Shown: piece by piece, positions 30,133-37,875 of the stretch
Position numbering within the stretch: position 1 is the first letter of the stretch
Layout of the letters: every line of letters begins with the position of its first letter
Assembly (NCBI RefSeq): GCF_046105845.1
Contig: NZ_CP151004.1
From: Escherichia coli
Lineage (GTDB): Bacteria > Pseudomonadota > Gammaproteobacteria > Enterobacterales > Enterobacteriaceae
Strand: one strand, 5' to 3'
DNA length: 64,000 nucleotides
Notes under the pieces: model-generated
Database searches by the model: none
Told to the model about the DNA's origin: nothing
The model's input: the letters and a program-made list of their open reading frames with translations, nothing else
Made by a program: the position numbers and the translations under genes

Positions 30133-30188
30133 TAGTTCGGATTTTACTTAACCGGGTAAATTTGCCCGGTTTTCGCATGGAGATAATT

Positions 30189-32972
30189 ATGAGAAACCTC
30201 TGTTTCTTACTGACGTTAGTGGCAACTCTGTTGCTCCCCGGGCGACTGATTGCCGCCGCCTTACCGCAGGATGAAAAGTTAATTACCGGGCAACTGGACA
30301 ATGGCTTGCGATATATGATTTATCCGCATGCTCAACCAAAGGATCAGGTAAATTTATGGCTGCAAATTCATACCGGTTCATTGCAGGAAGAGGACAATGA
30401 GCGCGGCGTGGCTCATTTTGTAGAACATATGATGTTTAACGGCACAAAAACATGGCCGGGTAATAAAGTCATCGAAACATTTGAGTCAATGGGCCTGCGT
30501 TTTGGTCGCGATGTTAATGCCTATACCAGCTATGACGAAACGGTGTATCAGGTGAGTTTGCCGACTACGCAGAAACAAAATCTGCAACAAGTGATGGCAA
30601 TCTTTAGTGAATGGAGTAATGCCGCAAGCTTTGAAAAACTCGAAGTAGACGCTGAACGCGGCGTAATTACTGAGGAATGGCGTGCCCATCAGGATGCGAA
30701 ATGGCGCACCTCTCAGGCGCGCCGCCCTTTCCTGCTGGCTAATACCCGTAATTTAGACCGTGAACCTATCGGCCTGATGGATACTGTCGCCACGGTCACA
30801 CCGGCACAATTGCGCCAATTTTATCAACGCTGGTATCAACCAAATAATATGACCTTTATCGTGGTCGGCGATATTGACAGTAAAGAAGCGCTGGCGCTGA
30901 TTAAGGATAATTTAAGTAAGCTTCCGGCTAACAAAGTAGCTGAAAATCGCGTCTGGCCGACAAAAGCCGAAAACCACCTGCGCTTTAATATCATTAATGA
31001 TAAAGAAAACCGGGTGAACGGCATCGCACTCTATTATCGCCTGCCAATGGTGCAAGTGAGCGATGAGCAAAGCTTTATCGAACAAGCTGAATGGAGCATG
31101 TTGGTTCAGCTGTTCAATCAGCGTCTGCAGGAACGCATACAGTCGGGCGAGTTGAAGACTATTTCTGGCGGCACTGCGCGCAGCGTTAAAATTGCACCCG
31201 ATTATCAGTCGCTGTTTTTCCGTGTAAATGCACGAGACGATAATATGCAGGATGCTGCGAATGCATTAATGGCAGAGTTGGCAACTATTGATCAGCATGG
31301 TTTTTCTGCTGAAGAACTCGATGATGTCAAATCTACCCGCCTCACCTGGCTGAAAAATGCGGTTGATCAGCAAGCTGAACGTGATTTACGTATGCTGACC
31401 AGTCGCCTGGCATCCAGCTCATTAAATAATACGCCGTTCTTGTCGCCGGAAGAGACATATCAACTTTCGAAACGTCTGTGGCAGCAAATTACCGTGCAAA
31501 GTCTGGCGGAAAAATGGCAGCAGTTAAGAAAGAACCAGGACGCATTTTGGGAGCAAATGGTAAACAATGAGGTTGCCGCAAAAAAAGCATTGTCTCCTGC
31601 GGCTATCCTGGCGCTGAAAAAAGAGTACGCCAACAAAAAGCTGGCGGCTTACATCTTCCCAGGCAGAAATTTATCGTTAACAGTAGACGCTGACCCACAG
31701 GCGGAAATTAGCAGCAAAGAAACGCTGGCTGAGAATCTGACATCATTAACACTTTCCAATGGTGCCAGGGTTATTCTGGCAAAATCCGCGGGTGAAGAGC
31801 AAAAGCTACAAATTACTGCCGTATCTAATAAAGGCGATTTAAGTTTCCCTGCGCAGCAAAAATCACTTATCGCGCTGGCAAATAAAGCAGTAAGCGGAAG
31901 CGGCGTTGGTGAACTCTCCTCTTCCAGCCTGAAACGCTGGAGTGCGGAAAACTCGGTAACCATGAGCAGTAAAGTCAGTGGCATGAATACGTTGCTCTCC
32001 GTTAGCGCGCGGGCTAATAACCCTGAACCTGGTTTCCAGTTGATTAACCAGCGAATCACCCACAGCACGATTAACGACAATATTTGGGCATCGCTACAAA
32101 ATGCTCAAATTCAGGCGTTGAAAACGCTCGACCAGCGTCCAGCGGAGAAATTCGCCCAGCAGATGTATGAGACGCGCTATGCTGATGACCGCACGAAATT
32201 ACTGCAAGAAAATCAGATTGCACAGTTTACTGCCGCAGATGCGCTGGCTGCCGATCGCCAGTTGTTTTCATCTCCAGCGGATATCACGTTTGTCATTGTC
32301 GGTAATGTCGCAGAAGACAAACTCGTGGCGTTAATTACGCGTTACTTAGGGTCAATCAAACACTCTGATTCGCCATTAGCCGCAGGTAAACCATTAACTC
32401 GCGCGACGGACAACGCATCGGTTACTGTAAAAGAACAAAATGAACCTGTGGTACAGGTTTCACAGTGGAAGCGTTATGATTCCCGGACACCTGTTAATCT
32501 GGCGACGCGTATGGCGCTCGATGCTTTTAACGTCGCACTGGCAAAAGATCTACGCGTTAATATTCGTGAACAGGCCTCTGGGGCATACAGCGTTTCTTCT
32601 CGCCTCTCGGTTGATCCTCAGGCCAAAGATATCAGTCATTTGCTGGCTTTTACTTGTCAACCGGAACGACATGATGAACTGTTAACGTTAGCGAATGAAG
32701 TGATGGTTAAGCGTCTGGCTAAAGGGATCAGTGAGCAAGAACTGAACGAATACCAGCAAAACGTTCAGCGCAGCCTCGATATCCAACAGCGTAGCGTTCA
32801 ACAATTAGCGAACACCATTGTAAATAGTCTTATTCAATATGACGATCCTGCAGCATGGACTGAGCAGGAGCAATTATTGAAACAAATGACGGTAGAGAAT
32901 GTTAACACTGCCGTTAAACAATATCTTTCTCATCCGGTGAATACCTATACCGGAGTATTATTGCCAAAATAA
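30189..32972 (+). CDS. pqqL: Periplasmic M16-family zinc metallopeptidase (pitrilysin-like)
   Basis: 931-aa product MRNLCFLLTLVATLLLPGRLIAA…; inverted zinc-binding motif HFVEH at approx. residue 85; matches K-12 PqqL. Confidence 0.9.
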   Translation: MRNLCFLLTLVATLLLPGRLIAAALPQDEKLITGQLDNGLRYMIYPHAQPKDQVNLWLQIHTGSLQEEDNERGVAHFVEHMMFNGTKTWPGNKVIETFESMGLRFGRDVNAYTSYDETVYQVSLPTTQKQNLQQVMAIFSEWSNAASFEKLEVDAERGVITEEWRAHQDAKWRTSQARRPFLLANTRNLDREPIGLMDTVATVTPAQLRQFYQRWYQPNNMTFIVVGDIDSKEALALIKDNLSKLPANKVAENRVWPTKAENHLRFNIINDKENRVNGIALYYRLPMVQVSDEQSFIEQAEWSMLVQLFNQRLQERIQSGELKTISGGTARSVKIAPDYQSLFFRVNARDDNMQDAANALMAELATIDQHGFSAEELDDVKSTRLTWLKNAVDQQAERDLRMLTSRLASSSLNNTPFLSPEETYQLSKRLWQQITVQSLAEKWQQLRKNQDAFWEQMVNNEVAAKKALSPAAILALKKEYANKKLAAYIFPGRNLSLTVDADPQAEISSKETLAENLTSLTLSNGARVILAKSAGEEQKLQITAVSNKGDLSFPAQQKSLIALANKAVSGSGVGELSSSSLKRWSAENSVTMSSKVSGMNTLLSVSARANNPEPGFQLINQRITHSTINDNIWASLQNAQIQALKTLDQRPAEKFAQQMYETRYADDRTKLLQENQIAQFTAADALAADRQLFSSPADITFVIVGNVAEDKLVALITRYLGSIKHSDSPLAAGKPLTRATDNASVTVKEQNEPVVQVSQWKRYDSRTPVNLATRMALDAFNVALAKDLRVNIREQASGAYSVSSRLSVDPQAKDISHLLAFTCQPERHDELLTLANEVMVKRLAKGISEQELNEYQQNVQRSLDIQQRSVQQLANTIVNSLIQYDDPAAWTEQEQLLKQMTVENVNTAVKQYLSHPVNTYTGVLLPK

Positions 32973-33234
32973 TAACAGCCCCGTCAACACCTCGTTGGCG
33001 GGGATTTTAGCAATATTCGCTATTTTTATGTAATAATTTTATAAATGCGTTCAAAATAATAACCAAGTACTAATAGTGATATTTTAAGGTCTGATTTTTA
33101 CGTGATAATTCAGGAGGCGTAGAAAGTGCATAAAAATAACAGCATAAAACACCTTGCCATCACCCAAGAATTCAATAATGTATTGATTTTCAATGATAAA
33201 ATATTATTCGCATAATATCTCACGATAAATAACA

Positions 33235-33254
33235 TTAGGATTTTGTTATTTAAA
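33235..33254 (+). promoter_or_regulatory. GAD box (GadE binding site) TTAGGATTTTGTTATTTAAA in gadB promoter
   Basis: Exact 20-bp GAD box sequence as remembered for gadA/gadBC promoters, about 80 bp upstream of the gadB ATG. Confidence 0.8.
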
Positions 33255-33333
33255 CACGAGTCCTTTGCACTTGCTTACTTTATCGATAAATCCTACTTTT
33301 TTAATGCGATCCAATCATTTTAAGGAGTTTAAA

Positions 33334-34734
33334 ATGGATAAGAAGCTAGTAACGGATTTAAGGTCGGAACTACTCGATTCACGTTTTGGTGCGAAGTCTA
33401 TTTCCACTATCGCAGAATCAAAACGTTTTCCGCTGCACGAAATGCGCGACGATGTCGCATTTCAGATTATCAATGACGAATTATATCTTGATGGCAACGC
33501 TCGTCAGAACCTGGCCACTTTCTGCCAGACCTGGGACGACGAAAATGTCCACAAGTTGATGGATTTATCCATTAACAAAAACTGGATCGACAAAGAAGAA
33601 TATCCGCAATCTGCAGCCATCGACCTGCGTTGCGTAAACATGGTTGCCGATCTGTGGCATGCGCCTGCGCCGAAAAATGGTCAGGCCGTTGGCACCAACA
33701 CCATTGGTTCTTCCGAGGCCTGTATGCTCGGCGGGATGGCGATGAAATGGCGTTGGCGCAAGCGTATGGAAGCCGCAGGTAAGCCGACCAACAAACCAAA
33801 CCTGGTGTGCGGTCCGGTACAAATCTGCTGGCATAAATTCGCCCGCTACTGGGATGTGGAGCTGCGTGAGATCCCTATGCGCCCCGGTCAGTTGTTTATG
33901 GACCCGAAACGCATGATTGAAGCCTGCGACGAAAACACCATCGGCGTGGTGCCGACTTTTGGCGTGACCTACACCGGTAACTATGAGTTCCCGCAGCCGC
34001 TGCACGATGCGCTGGATAAATTCCAGGCCGACACCGGTATCGACATCGACATGCACATCGACGCCGCCAGCGGTGGCTTCCTGGCACCGTTCGTCGCCCC
34101 GGATATCGTCTGGGACTTCCGCCTGCCGCGTGTGAAATCGATCAGTGCTTCAGGCCATAAATTCGGTCTGGCTCCGCTGGGCTGCGGCTGGGTTATCTGG
34201 CGTGATGAAGAAGCGCTGCCGCAGGAACTGGTGTTCAACGTTGACTATCTCGGTGGTCAGATTGGGACTTTCGCCATCAACTTCTCCCGCCCGGCGGGTC
34301 AGGTGATTGCACAGTACTATGAATTCCTGCGCCTTGGTCGTGAAGGCTATACCAAAGTACAGAACGCTTCCTACCAGGTCGCTGCCTATCTGGCGGATGA
34401 AATCGCCAAACTGGGGCCGTATGAGTTCATCTGTACTGGTCGCCCGGACGAAGGCATTCCGGCGGTTTGCTTCAAACTGAAAGATGGTGAAGATCCGGGA
34501 TACACCCTCTACGACCTCTCTGAACGTCTGCGTCTGCGCGGCTGGCAGGTTCCGGCCTTCACTCTCGGCGGTGAAGCCACCGACATCGTGGTGATGCGCA
34601 TTATGTGTCGTCGCGGCTTCGAAATGGACTTTGCTGAACTGTTGCTGGAAGACTACAAAGCCTCCCTGAAATATCTCAGCGATCACCCGAAACTGCAGGG
34701 TATTGCCCAGCAGAACAGCTTTAAACATACCTGA
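33334..34734 (+). CDS. gadB: Glutamate decarboxylase B (PLP-dependent)
   Basis: 466-aa product [40 protein letters not shown]…; followed by gadC, so it is the gadB paralogue. Confidence 0.95.
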
Positions 34735-34754
34735 TAACGTTTAACGGTAACGGT

Positions 34755-34780
34755 GTCCCGAAACCCACCCGTTTCGGGAC
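34755..34780 (+). other. 10-bp stem-loop in gadB-gadC intergenic region
   Basis: GTCCCGAAAC-CCACCC-GTTTCGGGAC read directly; followed by AATTTCC (weak U tract). Confidence 0.45.
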
Positions 34781-34889
34781 AATTTCCAAAGTCTGTTCAC
34801 TGGCATTAGCAACGGAAAATATTGTTCTGAATACGCTACAGAACAAAACAGGTGCGGTTCCGACAGGAATACCGTTTTAGGGGGATAAT

Positions 34890-36425
34890 ATGGCTACATC
34901 AGTACAGACAGGTAAAGCTAAGCAGCTCACATTACTCGGATTTTTTGCCATAACGGCATCGATGGTAATGGCTGTTTATGAATACCCTACCTTCGCAACA
35001 TCGGGCTTTTCATTAGTCTTCTTCCTGCTATTAGGCGGGATTTTATGGTTTATTCCCGTGGGACTTTGTGCTGCGGAAATGGCCACCGTCGACGGCTGGG
35101 AAGAAGGTGGTGTCTTCGCCTGGGTATCAAATACTCTGGGGCCGAGATGGGGATTTGCAGCGATCTCATTTGGCTATCTGCAAATCGCCATTGGTTTTAT
35201 TCCGATGCTCTATTTCGTGTTAGGGGCACTCTCCTACATCCTGAAATGGCCAGCGCTGAATGAAGACCCTATTACCAAAACTATTGCAGCACTCATCATT
35301 CTTTGGGCGCTGGCATTAACGCAGTTTGGTGGCACAAAATACACGGCGCGAATTGCTAAAGTTGGCTTCTTCGCCGGTATCCTGTTACCTGCATTTATTT
35401 TGATCGCATTAGCGGCTATTTATCTGCACTCCGGTGCCCCCGTTGCTATCGAAATGGATTCGAAGACCTTCTTCCCTGACTTCTCTAAAGTGGGCACCCT
35501 GGTTGTATTTGTTGCCTTCATTTTGAGTTATATGGGCGTTGAAGCTTCCGCAACCCACGTCAATGAAATGAGCAATCCAGGGCGTGACTATCCACTGGCT
35601 ATGTTACTGCTGATGGTGGCGGCAATCTGCTTAAGCTCTGTTGGCGGTTTGTCTATTGCGATGGTCATTCCGGGTAATGAAATCAACCTCTCCGCAGGGG
35701 TAATGCAAACCTTTACCGTTCTGATGTCCCATGTGGCACCGGAAATTGAGTGGACGGTTCGCGTGATCTCCGCACTGCTGTTACTGGGTGTTCTGGCGGA
35801 AATCGCCTCCTGGATTGTTGGTCCTTCTCGCGGGATGTATGTCACAGCGCAGAAAAACCTGCTGCCAGCGGCATTCGCTAAAATGAACAAAAATGGCGTA
35901 CCGGTAACGCTGGTCATTTCGCAGCTGGTGATTACTTCTATCGCGTTGATCATCCTCACCAATACCGGTGGCGGTAACAACATGTCCTTCCTGATCGCAC
36001 TGGCGCTGACGGTGGTGATTTATCTGTGTGCTTATTTCATGCTGTTTATTGGCTACATTGTGTTGGTTCTTAAACATCCTGACTTAAAACGCACATTTAA
36101 TATCCCTGGTGGTAAAGGGGTGAAACTGGTCGTGGCTGTTGTCGGTCTGCTGACTTCAATTATGGCGTTTATTGTTTCCTTCCTGCCGCCGGATAACATC
36201 CAGGGTGACTCTACCGATATGTATGTTGAATTACTGGTCGTTAGTTTCCTGGTGGTACTTGCCCTGCCCTTTATTCTCTATGCTGTTCATGATCGTAAAG
36301 GCAAAGGGAATACCGGCGTCACTCTGGAGCCAATCAACAGTCAGAACGCACCAAAAGGTCACTTCTTCCTGCACCCGCGTGCACGTTCACCACACTATAT
36401 TGTGATGAATGACAAGAAACACTAA
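34890..36425 (+). CDS. gadC: Glutamate:GABA antiporter
   Basis: 511-aa APC-family transporter [33 protein letters not shown]…; matches K-12 GadC. Confidence 0.95.
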
Positions 36426-36448
36426 CCATGTCTGAATGGTTATAAGAT

Positions 36449-36480
36449 AAGGGAGCGATAATTCATCGCTCCCTTTTTCG
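36449..36480 (+). terminator. Rho-independent terminator of gadBC
   Basis: GGGAGCGAT-AATTC-ATCGCTCCC followed by TTTTT. Confidence 0.85.
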
Positions 36481-36555
36481 TGCTTGCTGTCGTATTGACT
36501 TAACCGGGATAAGTACGAGAATGAGCGCACATCTGTTTACCGGAAACCAGCACAT

Positions 36556-37875
36556 ATGGATATCTGCTCCCGAAACGAGAAATTAGCGATTAGAAGACCA
36601 GCGGTACTGGTTGCACTGGCACTTTTACTGTGTAGTTGCAAAAGCACGCCTCCAGAGTCAATGGTGACACCACCAACAGGTTCGAAGCCACCAGCTACGA
36701 CGCAACAATCGTCACAACCGATGCGTGGCATCTGGCTGGCCACAGTGTCTCGCCTCGACTGGCCACCGGTTTCCTCGGTTAACATTAGTAACCCCACCAG
36801 CCGGGCCCGTGTACAACAACAGGCGATGATCGACAAACTGGATCATCTGCAACGTCTCGGCATAAACACGGTCTTTTTCCAGGTCAAGCCAGACGGTACC
36901 GCCCTGTGGCCATCGAAAATTTTGCCGTGGTCCGATCTTATGACCGGTAAGATTGGTGAAAATCCGGGTTACGATCCGCTGCAATTTATGCTCGACGAAG
37001 CCCACAAGCGTGGGATGAAAGTACACGCCTGGTTTAACCCCTATCGCGTATCGGTTAATACGAAGCCCGGTACTATCAGGGAACTGAATAGCACTCTGTC
37101 TCAACAACCAGCGAGCGTCTATGTGCAACACCGCGACTGGATCAGAACGTCCGGCGATCGCTTTGTCCTCGACCCGGGCATCCCTGAGGTTCAGGACTGG
37201 ATCACATCAATAGTCGCAGAAGTGGTTTCCCGCTATCCGGTAGATGGCGTGCAGTTTGACGACTATTTCTATACTGAGTCACCAGCTTCACGGCTAAATG
37301 ATAACGAAACGTACCGCAAATACGGAGGCGCATTTGCGTCAAAAGCAGACTGGCGGCGCAACAATACTCAGCAGTTAATTGCGAAGGTATCGCACACCAT
37401 TAAAAGCATTAAGCCGGAAGTCGAATTTGGCGTTAGCCCGGCAGGCGTGTGGCGTAACCGATCACACGATCCGCTCGGTTCCGATACCCGAGGCGCGGCA
37501 GCCTATGACGAATCATACGCTGACACCCGTCGATGGGTGGAACAAGGATTGCTGGATTACATTGCTCCCCAAATTTACTGGCCGTTCTCACGGAGTGCCG
37601 CACGTTATGACGTTTTGGCAAAATGGTGGGCGGATGTCGTTAAACCGACCAGGACCCGCCTGTATATCGGTATCGCCTTCTATAAAGTGGGTGAACCTTC
37701 AAAGATAGAGCCAGACTGGATGATTAACGGCGGCGTACCGGAACTGAAAAAGCAGCTCGATCTTAACGATGCCGTGCCAGAAATTAGCGGCACAATCTTG
37801 TTCCGTGAGGACTATCTGAATAAACCGCAGACTCAACAAGCGGTTAGCTATCTGCAAAGTCGTTGGGGCAGTTAA
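36556..37875 (+). CDS. yddW: Outer-membrane lipoprotein YddW (glycoside-hydrolase-like domain)
   Basis: 439-aa ORF, lipobox LLLCSC, matches K-12 YddW. Confidence 0.9.
   Translation: MDICSRNEKLAIRRPAVLVALALLLCSCKSTPPESMVTPPTGSKPPATTQQSSQPMRGIWLATVSRLDWPPVSSVNISNPTSRARVQQQAMIDKLDHLQRLGINTVFFQVKPDGTALWPSKILPWSDLMTGKIGENPGYDPLQFMLDEAHKRGMKVHAWFNPYRVSVNTKPGTIRELNSTLSQQPASVYVQHRDWIRTSGDRFVLDPGIPEVQDWITSIVAEVVSRYPVDGVQFDDYFYTESPASRLNDNETYRKYGGAFASKADWRRNNTQQLIAKVSHTIKSIKPEVEFGVSPAGVWRNRSHDPLGSDTRGAAAYDESYADTRRWVEQGLLDYIAPQIYWPFSRSAARYDVLAKWWADVVKPTRTRLYIGIAFYKVGEPSKIEPDWMINGGVPELKKQLDLNDAVPEISGTILFREDYLNKPQTQQAVSYLQSRWGS

Follow-up and report, generated by a model that had tools for sequence, protein, structure and literature searches.

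How might a single operon supply an enzyme and a transporter in unequal amounts? GadB is an abundant soluble hexamer, whereas less is needed of the membrane antiporter GadC, which is costly if over-inserted. The question is raised by a stretch of Escherichia coli DNA (64 kb in all, hereafter the window) that carries the GadE/RcsB-activated gadBC operon of glutamate-dependent acid resistance (AR2). The operon, its GAD box, and the terminator that follows gadC are textbook knowledge, and the locus is a strain-level variant of gadBC from E. coli K-12. The only little-described part of the operon is a conserved RNA hairpin between gadB and gadC, located at the end of a gadB-only message. A full-text literature search for any description of a stem-loop or terminator between gadB and gadC, or of a monocistronic transcript, returned nothing relevant, though an older subscription paper may mention the hairpin. 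The genes and the elements that bound them are arranged as follows:

32979..33003, plus strand: hairpin after pqqL, CCCCGUCAAC-ACCUC-GUUGGCGGGG, then AUUUUAGC (RNAfold)
33235..33254, plus strand: GAD box, an exact 20-mer, TTAGGATTTTGTTATTTAAA
33271..33299, plus strand: inferred gadB core promoter, with -35 TTGCTT at 33271-33276, a 17-nt spacer, -10 TACTTT at 33294-33299, and a C before the -10
33334..34734, plus strand: gadB, glutamate decarboxylase B, 466 aa (RefSeq annotation; NCBIfam TIGR01788 equivalog)
34890..36425, plus strand: gadC, glutamate/GABA antiporter, 511 aa (RefSeq annotation; NCBIfam TIGR00910 equivalog)
36449..36479, plus strand: intrinsic terminator of the operon, with an 11-bp stem and loop AAUUC, then UUUUUC

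Both coding sequences score well above the cut-offs of their protein families, with 691.6 bits for GadB against TIGR01788 (cut-off 380.4) and 1027.3 bits for GadC against TIGR00910 (cut-off 673.5). GadB shares 99.6% amino acid identity with its K-12 counterpart, and its codon 5 is CTA (Leu) here versus CAA (Gln) in K-12. The true start of gadB is the ATG at 33334, which is preceded by AAGGAG; a start at TTG 33265, which stems from a mechanical open reading frame call, was rejected in favor of this ATG and its AAGGAG. The gene ends with tandem stop codons, TGA (34732-34734) and TAA. The gene order, pqqL-gadB-gadC-digH(yddW)-dosC, is the usual context of gadBC in Escherichia, and the genes, their order, and their neighbors (pqqL, digH, and dosC) are the same in K-12. 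Likewise, the K-12 promoter is identical to that of this strain from the GAD box through the ATG, as is the gadC terminator. The spacers that separate gadB from gadC differ at 3 of 155 positions, two of which fall within the hairpin loop (CCACCC here versus GAACCC in K-12). Among 5,426 complete genomes, the best match to the locus is 99.1% over 3.6 kb.

The hairpin located 3′ of pqqL has a 10-bp stem and a predicted folding energy of -18.6 kcal/mol (RNAfold), and its sequence is conserved in K-12. This structure is likely the pqqL terminator, which would form the upstream boundary of the gadBC unit. Farther downstream, the sequence TTAGGATTTTGTTATTTAAA occurs exactly once in the window, where chance would yield approximately 0.02 matches with three or fewer mismatches. 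It is identical upstream of K-12 gadA and gadB; elsewhere the distal parts of these two promoters have diverged, and no other 20-nt block in them is fully conserved. By definition, the GAD box is where the RcsB/GadE heterodimer binds to activate gadBC (PMC2887963). The position rule, as given for gadA, puts 16 bp between the 20-bp box and the -35 element downstream of it, with the box centered approximately 63 bp upstream of the start site (PMC2887963). The -35 element that we assign to gadB starts at 33271, 16 bp downstream of its GAD box, in agreement with this rule, and transcription would start about 27 nt upstream of gadB. Two additional blocks, CTTGCTT and GATAAATCCTACTTTTTTA, are common to the gadA and gadB promoters. 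A consensus scanner was silent on the gadB promoter because its -10 element matches the consensus at only three of six positions.

At its other end, the operon closes with a canonical intrinsic (Rho-independent) terminator, as evident from its stem, its U tract, and a mapped RNA 3′ end. Specifically, the stem (36449-36459 paired with 36465-36475) is formed by GGGAGCGAU and AUCGCUCCC extended by AA/UU, and is followed by U5, with the U run at 36474-36478 preceding a C. The structure folds at -22 kcal/mol (z = -3.7), a value equaled by none of 200 shuffled sequences. Published K-12 Term-seq data place an RNA 3′ end at 1568900(-), or window position 36479, with 70,553 reads and the sequence ...CUCCCUUUUUC. 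A terminator discriminant, whose formula reportedly originates with d'Aubenton Carafa in 1990, assigns this hairpin a value of +19. The consensus scanner missed the terminator because some of the T run is taken up by the A-U pairs that extend the stem, which is a limit of the tool and not counter-evidence. The hairpin between the two genes also went unreported and, having missed the gadB promoter and both hairpins, the scanner was excluded as evidence. The first-pass annotation of this DNA had proposed an exact GAD box upstream of gadB and a canonical terminator after gadC, and both proposals are confirmed by these data.

The intercistronic hairpin is a different case, and its parts are as follows:

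34754..34781, plus strand: intercistronic stem-loop, with 10 G+C-rich pairs, a closing U-A pair, and a 6-nt loop
34782..34787, plus strand: degenerate tail AUUUCC, in which 34785 is the equivalent of the RNA 3′ end mapped in K-12

The hairpin begins 21 nt after the gadB stop codon. Its arms (34755-34764 and 34771-34780) form 10 perfect pairs, or 11 when U34754-A34781 is included, and enclose the loop CCACCC (34765-34770). In a 51-nt context the structure folds at -19.6 kcal/mol (z = -3.2), with 2 of 200 shuffled sequences folding equally well, and its stability ranges from -15.7 to -19.6 kcal/mol. Given these folding and shuffling controls, and given that the hairpin pattern is unique in the window, we conclude that the structure is real and unlikely to have arisen by chance. 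It is present in 5407 of 5426 E. coli genomes, at a median of one place per genome. The 10-bp, GC-rich stem-loop without a strong U tract that had been proposed for this spacer is borne out at 34755-34780.

Several other origins for the hairpin were considered and rejected. Inheritance via the gadA/gadB duplication fails because homology between the two loci stops approximately 6 nt after the stop codon and no such hairpin follows gadA. A terminator for an antisense transcript would require the minus-strand hairpin, which is followed by ACCGUUACCG, to act without a U tract and without a convergent gene. A perfect palindromic pair of arms in an intergenic region could also function as DNA or be selfish, for example as a REP/BIME-like repeat, a protein operator, or a recombination site, and play no part in gadBC mRNA. 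This proposal is largely refuted, and we consider it extremely unlikely, given that the sequence is unique in the window, single-copy per genome, and absent 3′ of gadA, that RNA-type pairing (including G.U) is kept, and that an RNA 3′ end maps at the hairpin.

The preservation of pairing is apparent when the stem is compared among nine Escherichia sequences. Compensatory changes are observed at 4 of its 11 pairs, although this covariation rests mainly on two diverged lineages. In the alignment, 94.9% of stem cells are paired compared with 26-50% in slid controls, and as many compensated pairs as in the real alignment arise in just 3 of 500 shuffles. The changes preserve RNA-type pairing, G.U intermediates included, whereas the loop varies freely across species. 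The tail is not conserved either, and reads AATTCC, GCATTCC, AAATTCC, or AAACTCC in other Escherichia. At the level of sequence comparison, these compensatory substitutions show that the hairpin structure is under selection.

A similar arrangement recurs far beyond this genus. Of 58 proteobacterial spacers between gadB and gadC that measure 40 nt or more, 53 carry a hairpin of -12 kcal/mol or lower after gadB, as scored by an ungapped-stem statistic. The median distance from the gadB stop codon to the hairpin is 18 nt, and the hairpins are non-homologous, with no sequence relationship to one another. The presence of unrelated hairpins at one position in most proteobacterial gadBC operons suggests that the arrangement is selected rather than accidental. 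In an alignment of the Providencia/Proteus group, 10 of 21 pairs are compensated. A U tract (at least six T in 8 nt) follows 5 of the 53 post-gadB hairpins, compared with 17 of 56 hairpins after gadC; among the species whose equivalent hairpin carries a full U tract are Yersinia rohdei, Serratia sp. H1w, Citrobacter sp. FP75, and Comamonas kerstersii.

Public data sets indicate that RNA molecules end at the hairpin. In the published Term-seq data, which were obtained with K-12 and not with the strain analyzed here, a dominant RNA 3′ end at 1570594(-) aligns with window position 34785, lies 5 nt after the hairpin stem, and has an average read count of 33,817 and the sequence ...GGGACAAUUU. This end was recorded for K-12 in M63 glucose (the condition assigned to the data sheet), is listed in one of three conditions only, and is absent from the LB OD 2.0 list. 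The SMRT-Cappable-seq supplements hold no entry for gadB or gadC, and neither do the four supplementary files of the Adams 2021 Rho dataset (PMC7815308; LB, OD 0.5), all of which were searched. In public RNA-seq data collected at pH 5.5, gadB is represented at 2532.55 FPKM and gadC at 1189 FPKM (approximately 2.1-fold), with the gadB reads confounded by those of the 98%-identical gadA. The first-pass annotation had taken the hairpin as more likely a partial terminator or a processing site that would set the gadB:gadC ratio, a view that is supported by the mapped 3′ end, the FPKM imbalance, and the compensation and recurrence of the stem. It had also set uniform read coverage across the gadB-gadC junction against this view; on this point, the unequal FPKM values suggest that coverage is not uniform, subject to the gadA reads within the gadB value.

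What process generates the 3′ end within the spacer? Partial terminators and attenuators are known within other operons, including the rplKAJL-rpoBC attenuator and T1 of rpsU-dnaG-rpoD. As in those systems, gadBC has a hairpin between cistrons and both short and read-through transcripts. It is quite possible that the hairpin is a leaky factor-independent (intrinsic) terminator, at which some polymerases release the RNA at AAUUU while others read through to gadC. The base of the stem is G+C-rich, the distance of 5 nt from stem to 3′ end is comparable to the spacing of 4-6 nt that these Term-seq data give for the gadC terminator, and an mRNA ratio of approximately 2:1 is compatible with about 50% termination. 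In addition, the equivalent hairpins in the four species named above have full U tracts. However, the gadBC tract differs from those of the known internal terminators in that it is degenerate and is not conserved across Escherichia. Its tail, AAUUUCCAAAG (AAUUUCC after the stem), has just three U residues, and the two residues adjoining the stem are A. No U run was found directly 3′ of the stem, where the T score is 0.9-1.5 compared with 4.0 at the gadC terminator, and the classical discriminant yields -30 to -42 compared with the +19 noted earlier. Furthermore, other Escherichia have a still more decayed tail (E. albertii has AAACUCC) next to a compensated stem, and 48 of the 53 equivalent hairpins lack a U tract.

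We tentatively favor an explanation in which the hairpin marks where a gadB-only mRNA ends and shields that 3′ end, which would be generated mainly by trimming and protection. Transcription would proceed from the start site upstream of gadB to the hairpin and U5 terminator after gadC. Some transcripts would then lose their gadC portion, through an endonucleolytic cut within the spacer or through premature termination farther downstream (Rho-dependent or of another kind), and the shortened RNAs would be trimmed 3′-to-5′ until the stable stem halts the exonucleases a few nucleotides away. As a result, the gadB segment would outlive or outnumber the gadC segment, and more soluble decarboxylase than membrane antiporter would be made.

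Stabilizing stem-loops between cistrons set differential expression in other operons, as exemplified by the REP hairpins in malE-malF and by the Rhodobacter capsulatus puf operon. Like these systems, gadBC has a stable hairpin without a U tract right after a highly expressed upstream gene, and a 3′ end at that site. The upstream mRNA is the more abundant in those systems and may be so in gadBC, judging from FPKM values in which gadB is confounded by gadA reads. Unlike the malE-malF REP sequences, the gadBC hairpin is single-copy and is not a REP element. Rho-dependent or processed transcripts are reported to be trimmed back to a protective hairpin (Dar & Sorek 2018, PMC6061677; discussed in Adams 2021, PMC7815308). 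Such transcripts resemble gadBC in that a stable stem lacking a U tract lies just a few nucleotides before the 3′ end, with a long untranslated spacer downstream. Some observations count against trimming: the mapped 3′ end is exactly where the short UUU run stops, as weak intrinsic termination would give, and the five species with a full U tract point to true termination in at least some lineages. On balance, we infer that trimming and protection, more than release of the polymerase, may account for the end, and that the gadB:gadC ratio may be caused by the hairpin.

A gadB-only message that is ended or protected by the hairpin would be a simple, hard-wired means of setting the stoichiometry of GadB and GadC, and would probably allow decarboxylase to be produced in excess of the transporter. 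The finding has modest practical value: it bears on how the transcript isoforms of the operon are annotated, and on how gadBC cassettes are designed for making GABA or for engineering acid tolerance. Our understanding of acid resistance is unchanged by it.

The remainder of the 155-nt spacer holds two more predicted structures:

34822..34846, plus strand: second spacer hairpin, UUGUUCUG...CAGAACAA, with 8 bp here and 10 bp in K-12
34855..34885, plus strand: third small hairpin (34855-34874, by folding) and the gadC Shine-Dalgarno sequence GGGGGA (34880-34885)

In other Escherichia species, the second hairpin exhibits one compensatory pair but three C.A mismatches, a pattern that suggests only weakly a conserved structure. 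The third region is nearly invariant in Escherichia, and hence its comparison is uninformative; the block at 34786-34821 is also nearly invariant. In the minimum-energy fold of the spacer, the AUUUCC just 3′ of the intercistronic hairpin pairs with the gadC Shine-Dalgarno sequence GGGGGAU.

With three predicted hairpins, a nearly invariant block, and a fold that engages the Shine-Dalgarno sequence, the spacer could be viewed as a structured gadC leader. The intercistronic hairpin would then be mainly a piece of this leader, which would tune translation or sense pH, temperature, an sRNA, or a protein, and the 3′ end would be a by-product. A second spacer hairpin with compensatory changes in the Providencia/Proteus group is in keeping with this proposal. 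Nonetheless, we regard it as unlikely, as the hairpin adjoins gadB and not the gadC ribosome-binding site, the second hairpin is broken in several Escherichia species, and no covariation supports the long-range pairing between AUUUCC and GGGGGAU. Moreover, Rfam covariance models reveal no family match in the region; the only hit, to a plastid 3′UTR model, falls at the gadC terminator on the minus strand and is attributable to chance (E = 0.33; 23.7 bits against a gathering threshold of 55.8).

A broader and highly unlikely proposal is that the spacer does more than stabilize passively and constitutes an unrecognized but widely conserved regulatory module, composed of the post-gadB hairpin, one or two additional hairpins and, in Escherichia, the nearly invariant block. 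If true, a signal or factor such as pH, an sRNA, Hfq or ProQ, or a nuclease adaptor would actively switch read-through, processing, or the translation of gadC. The supply of GadC would thereby be uncoupled from that of GadB under particular conditions in many Proteobacteria. Two further matches were noted in the spacer. The sole scanner hit for an internal gadC promoter (34860-34889, 9/12) overlaps the Shine-Dalgarno sequence and start codon, and a weak TTCACT-16-AATATT match lies within the nearly invariant block.

The region from 33235 to 36480 is the Escherichia gadBC locus. Selection maintains a stable stem immediately 3′ of gadB, and an RNA 3′ end lies at this stem. The genes, placed by open reading frames and the RefSeq annotation of near-identical genomes, and the two arms of the internal hairpin are arranged as follows.

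30162-32972, + strand, pqqL
33334-34734, + strand, gadB
34755-34764, + strand, 5′ arm of the internal hairpin, GUCCCGAAAC
34771-34780, + strand, 3′ arm of the internal hairpin, GUUUCGGGAC, with loop CCACCC
34890-36425, + strand, gadC
36556-37875, + strand, digH/yddW
from 38252, + strand, dosC

The gadB product reaches the NCBIfam equivalog TIGR01788 for glutamate decarboxylase (691.6 bits), and the gadC product reaches TIGR00910 for the GadC antiporter (1027.3 bits). The true gadB start is the annotated ATG at 33334 (466 aa), which has AAGGAG ahead of it. A TTG at 33265 in the open reading frame listing (489 aa) is a mechanical extension, as both the annotation and the Shine-Dalgarno sequence favor the ATG. 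Tandem stops TGA TAA (34732-34737) close the gene, and codon 5 (33346-33348) is CTA (Leu) in the window versus CAA (Gln) in K-12. Among 5,426 complete E. coli genomes, 5,383 match 80% or more of this 3.6-kb region. Most genomes share 95-99% identity over 32950-36560, and because the best value is only 99.1% (environmental and poultry isolates), the window comes from an ordinary lineage that is not yet completely sequenced and not closely represented in the collection.

The gadBC operon, its GAD box and the gadC terminator are textbook features. The window has a single GAD box (TTAGGATTTTGTTATTTAAA), at 33235-33254, and the sequence from there through the gadB ATG is identical to that of K-12. 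When the K-12 gadA and gadB promoters are aligned with the window, this 20-mer forms a fully conserved block amid diverged sequence, with −35 (CTTGCTT) and −10 (GATAAATCCTACTTTTTTA) blocks common to all three downstream. Castanie-Cornet et al. (2010, PMC2887963) describe a 20-bp consensus recognized by the RcsB/GadE heterodimer; its center is placed 63 bp before the start sites of gadA and gadBC, with the −35 element 16 bp downstream of the box. The putative −35 element TTGCTT in the window begins at 33271, exactly 16 bp past the GAD box, and the gadB transcription start site is likewise putative.

The internal hairpin begins 21 nt past the gadB stop. An extra U-A pair (34754/34781) brings its stem to 11 pairs, the fold is predicted at −19.6 kcal/mol (z = −3.2, 51-nt context), and the tail that follows is AAUUUCCAAAG. 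The hairpin at the end of gadC, AAGGGAGCGAU-AAUUC-AUCGCUCCCUU then UUUC (36449-36479), folds at −22 kcal/mol (z = −3.7). The classical terminator discriminant of d'Aubenton Carafa et al., from 1990, is reportedly d = 96.59(−dG/L) + 18.16T − 116.87; on this formula the gadC terminator scores +19 and the internal hairpin −30 to −42. A further 10-bp hairpin (CCCCGTCAAC/GTTGGCGGGG then ATTTTAGC, 32979-33003), 7 nt past the pqqL stop, has a borderline value of −15 and is probably the pqqL terminator, which would shield gadBC from transcription arriving from upstream. The internal hairpin is not a repeat, given its single copy in the window and its one place per genome across 5,407 genomes, nor does it belong to the gadA/gadB duplication, in which homology ends ~6 nt beyond the stop codon. 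A search of Rfam returned no family that matches it.

Term-seq data from K-12 contain two neighboring dominant gadBC 3′ ends (Adams et al., 2021, PMC7815308, supplementary file 1), namely 1570594(-), with 33,816.8 reads and the sequence ...GUCCCGAAACGAACCCGUUUCGGGACAAUUU, and 1568900(-), with 70,553.1 reads and the sequence ...AUCGCUCCCUUUUUC. When K-12 coordinates are carried over by alignment (A1), the former falls at 34785, 5 nt past the internal stem, and the latter at 36479, immediately beyond the gadC terminator's U5 run. The 'orphan' label on both ends reflects their positions 51 and 54 nt past stop codons, just outside the 50-nt limit for 'primary' ends (PMC7815308). Judging by per-sheet row counts and file position, these entries belong to the M63-glucose OD 0.4 sheet, the only one with both ends; for LB at OD 2.0 neither end is listed, though gadX and gadY ends are abundant there. 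The end at the internal hairpin is thus publicly tabulated, without interpretation there (PMC7815308), and no paper discussing the gadB-gadC hairpin was found in the literature searched, which did not reach the original gadBC Northern papers.

Nine Escherichia spacers were compared: those of the window, K-12, SC418, two further Escherichia species, E. whittamii, E. albertii, and two diverged 'E. coli' GTDB representatives. Two-sided changes that keep pairing occur at 4 of the 11 stem pairs, including U-A to C-G in the spacer L007 and, in E. albertii, U-A to C-G and A-U to G-C (twice); G·U intermediates are present in L007 and a second comparison spacer, L008. Paired cells amount to 94.9%, versus 26-50% with the partner slid by 1-3 columns, and the compensated-pair count, taken over this hairpin and a second spacer hairpin together, is reached by 3 of 500 shuffles. 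Two diverged lineages contribute most of this signal. The loop varies across almost all lineages (CCACCC, GAACCC, ACACCC, GCACCC, AAACCC, GAAUCC and others), and the tail drifts (AAUUUCC, AAUUCC, GCAUUCC, AAAUUCC, and AAACUCC in E. albertii). Selection has kept the stem rather than a U tract.

Loop bases 34765-34766 differ in nearly every lineage (CC, GA, AC, GC, AA) while E. coli strains share the stem, and could mark a site of locally raised mutation or of relaxed constraint. L007 (1-152, E. coli strain SCPM-O-B-8794) is clearly diverged, with tail GCAUUCC and new G-C pairs that lengthen the stem outward, and behaves as a separate species-level lineage.

Beyond Escherichia, a GadC-based scan of one genome per species yielded 80 loci, of which 66, including the window, have gadB immediately ahead of gadC in the same orientation. 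Hairpins were counted in the 58 spacers of at least 40 nt, the other eight being too short to hold one. Of the 58, 53 contain a hairpin of −12 kcal/mol or lower, starting a median of 18 nt past the gadB stop (interquartile range 13-29), and under a stricter statistic on ungapped stems roughly three quarters outscored all of 100 dinucleotide shuffles or fell behind no more than 1-2 of them. Between genera the sequences are unrelated, with at least two dozen distinct versions by eye; aligned Providencia/Proteus spacers hold two hairpins in succession, and 10 of their 21 pairs show compensation. The eight short spacers (19-37 nt; L017, L019, L022, L055, L064, L065, L073, L076), from Advenella, Kosakonia, Paenalcaligenes, Spartobacteria/Verrucomicrobia MAGs and one Firmicutes MAG, carry no hairpin, so the arrangement is common, not universal. 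The hairpin belongs to a known element type, the intercistronic stabilizer or attenuator hairpin, and the recurrence of this arrangement across proteobacterial gadBC operons is a modest addition.

Because selection acts on the stem and not on a U tract, we tentatively favor, at somewhat short of an even chance, an exonuclease-blocking stem-loop that would define the 3′ end and thereby yield a stable gadB-only mRNA. A leaky intrinsic terminator is a real possibility that falls short of probable: the K-12 3′ end falls on a UUU run, and full U tracts follow the equivalent hairpin in Yersinia rohdei, Serratia sp. H1w, Proteus myxofaciens, Citrobacter sp. FP75 and Comamonas kerstersii. Among the 53 post-gadB hairpins, only these five have 6 or more T in 8 nt, versus 17 of 56 post-gadC hairpins (Mann-Whitney p = 0.013). 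The exonuclease barrier and the leaky terminator are compatible, not exclusive. That the hairpin is instead a gadC leader or switch seems unlikely, and that it acts at the DNA level very improbable.

Either as a barrier or as a leaky terminator, the hairpin would give more gadB message than gadC message, an excess that suits the pairing of an abundant soluble enzyme with a membrane transporter. In wild-type cells at pH 5.5, Cufflinks FPKM values are 2532.55 for gadB versus 1189 for gadC (Seo et al., 2015, PMC4918353), a 2.1-fold step, and the second mutant table listing both genes gives 1670 versus 803 (PMC4918353), with gadB read assignment uncertain because gadB is 98% identical to gadA.

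Adjoining the hairpin tail, a block at 34786-34821 (CCAAAGTCTGTTCACTGGCATTAGCAACGGAAAATAT) hardly varies among the nine Escherichia spacers, that of E. albertii included, and is more conserved than the neighboring hairpin. It contains a weak promoter-like match (TTCACT-16-AATATT) and might be a nuclease or sRNA site rather than a promoter. When the whole spacer is folded, the minimum-energy structure pairs AUUUCC (34782-34787) with the gadC Shine-Dalgarno sequence GGGGGAU (34880-34886), a possible long-range anti-Shine-Dalgarno interaction with no covariation in support. For the second spacer hairpin (34822-34846), which a T-to-A change at 34838 cuts to 8 bp in the window, support within Escherichia is mixed (one compensated pair, three C·A mismatches); the second spacer hairpin of Providencia/Proteus (L031-L039) carries clear compensatory changes.
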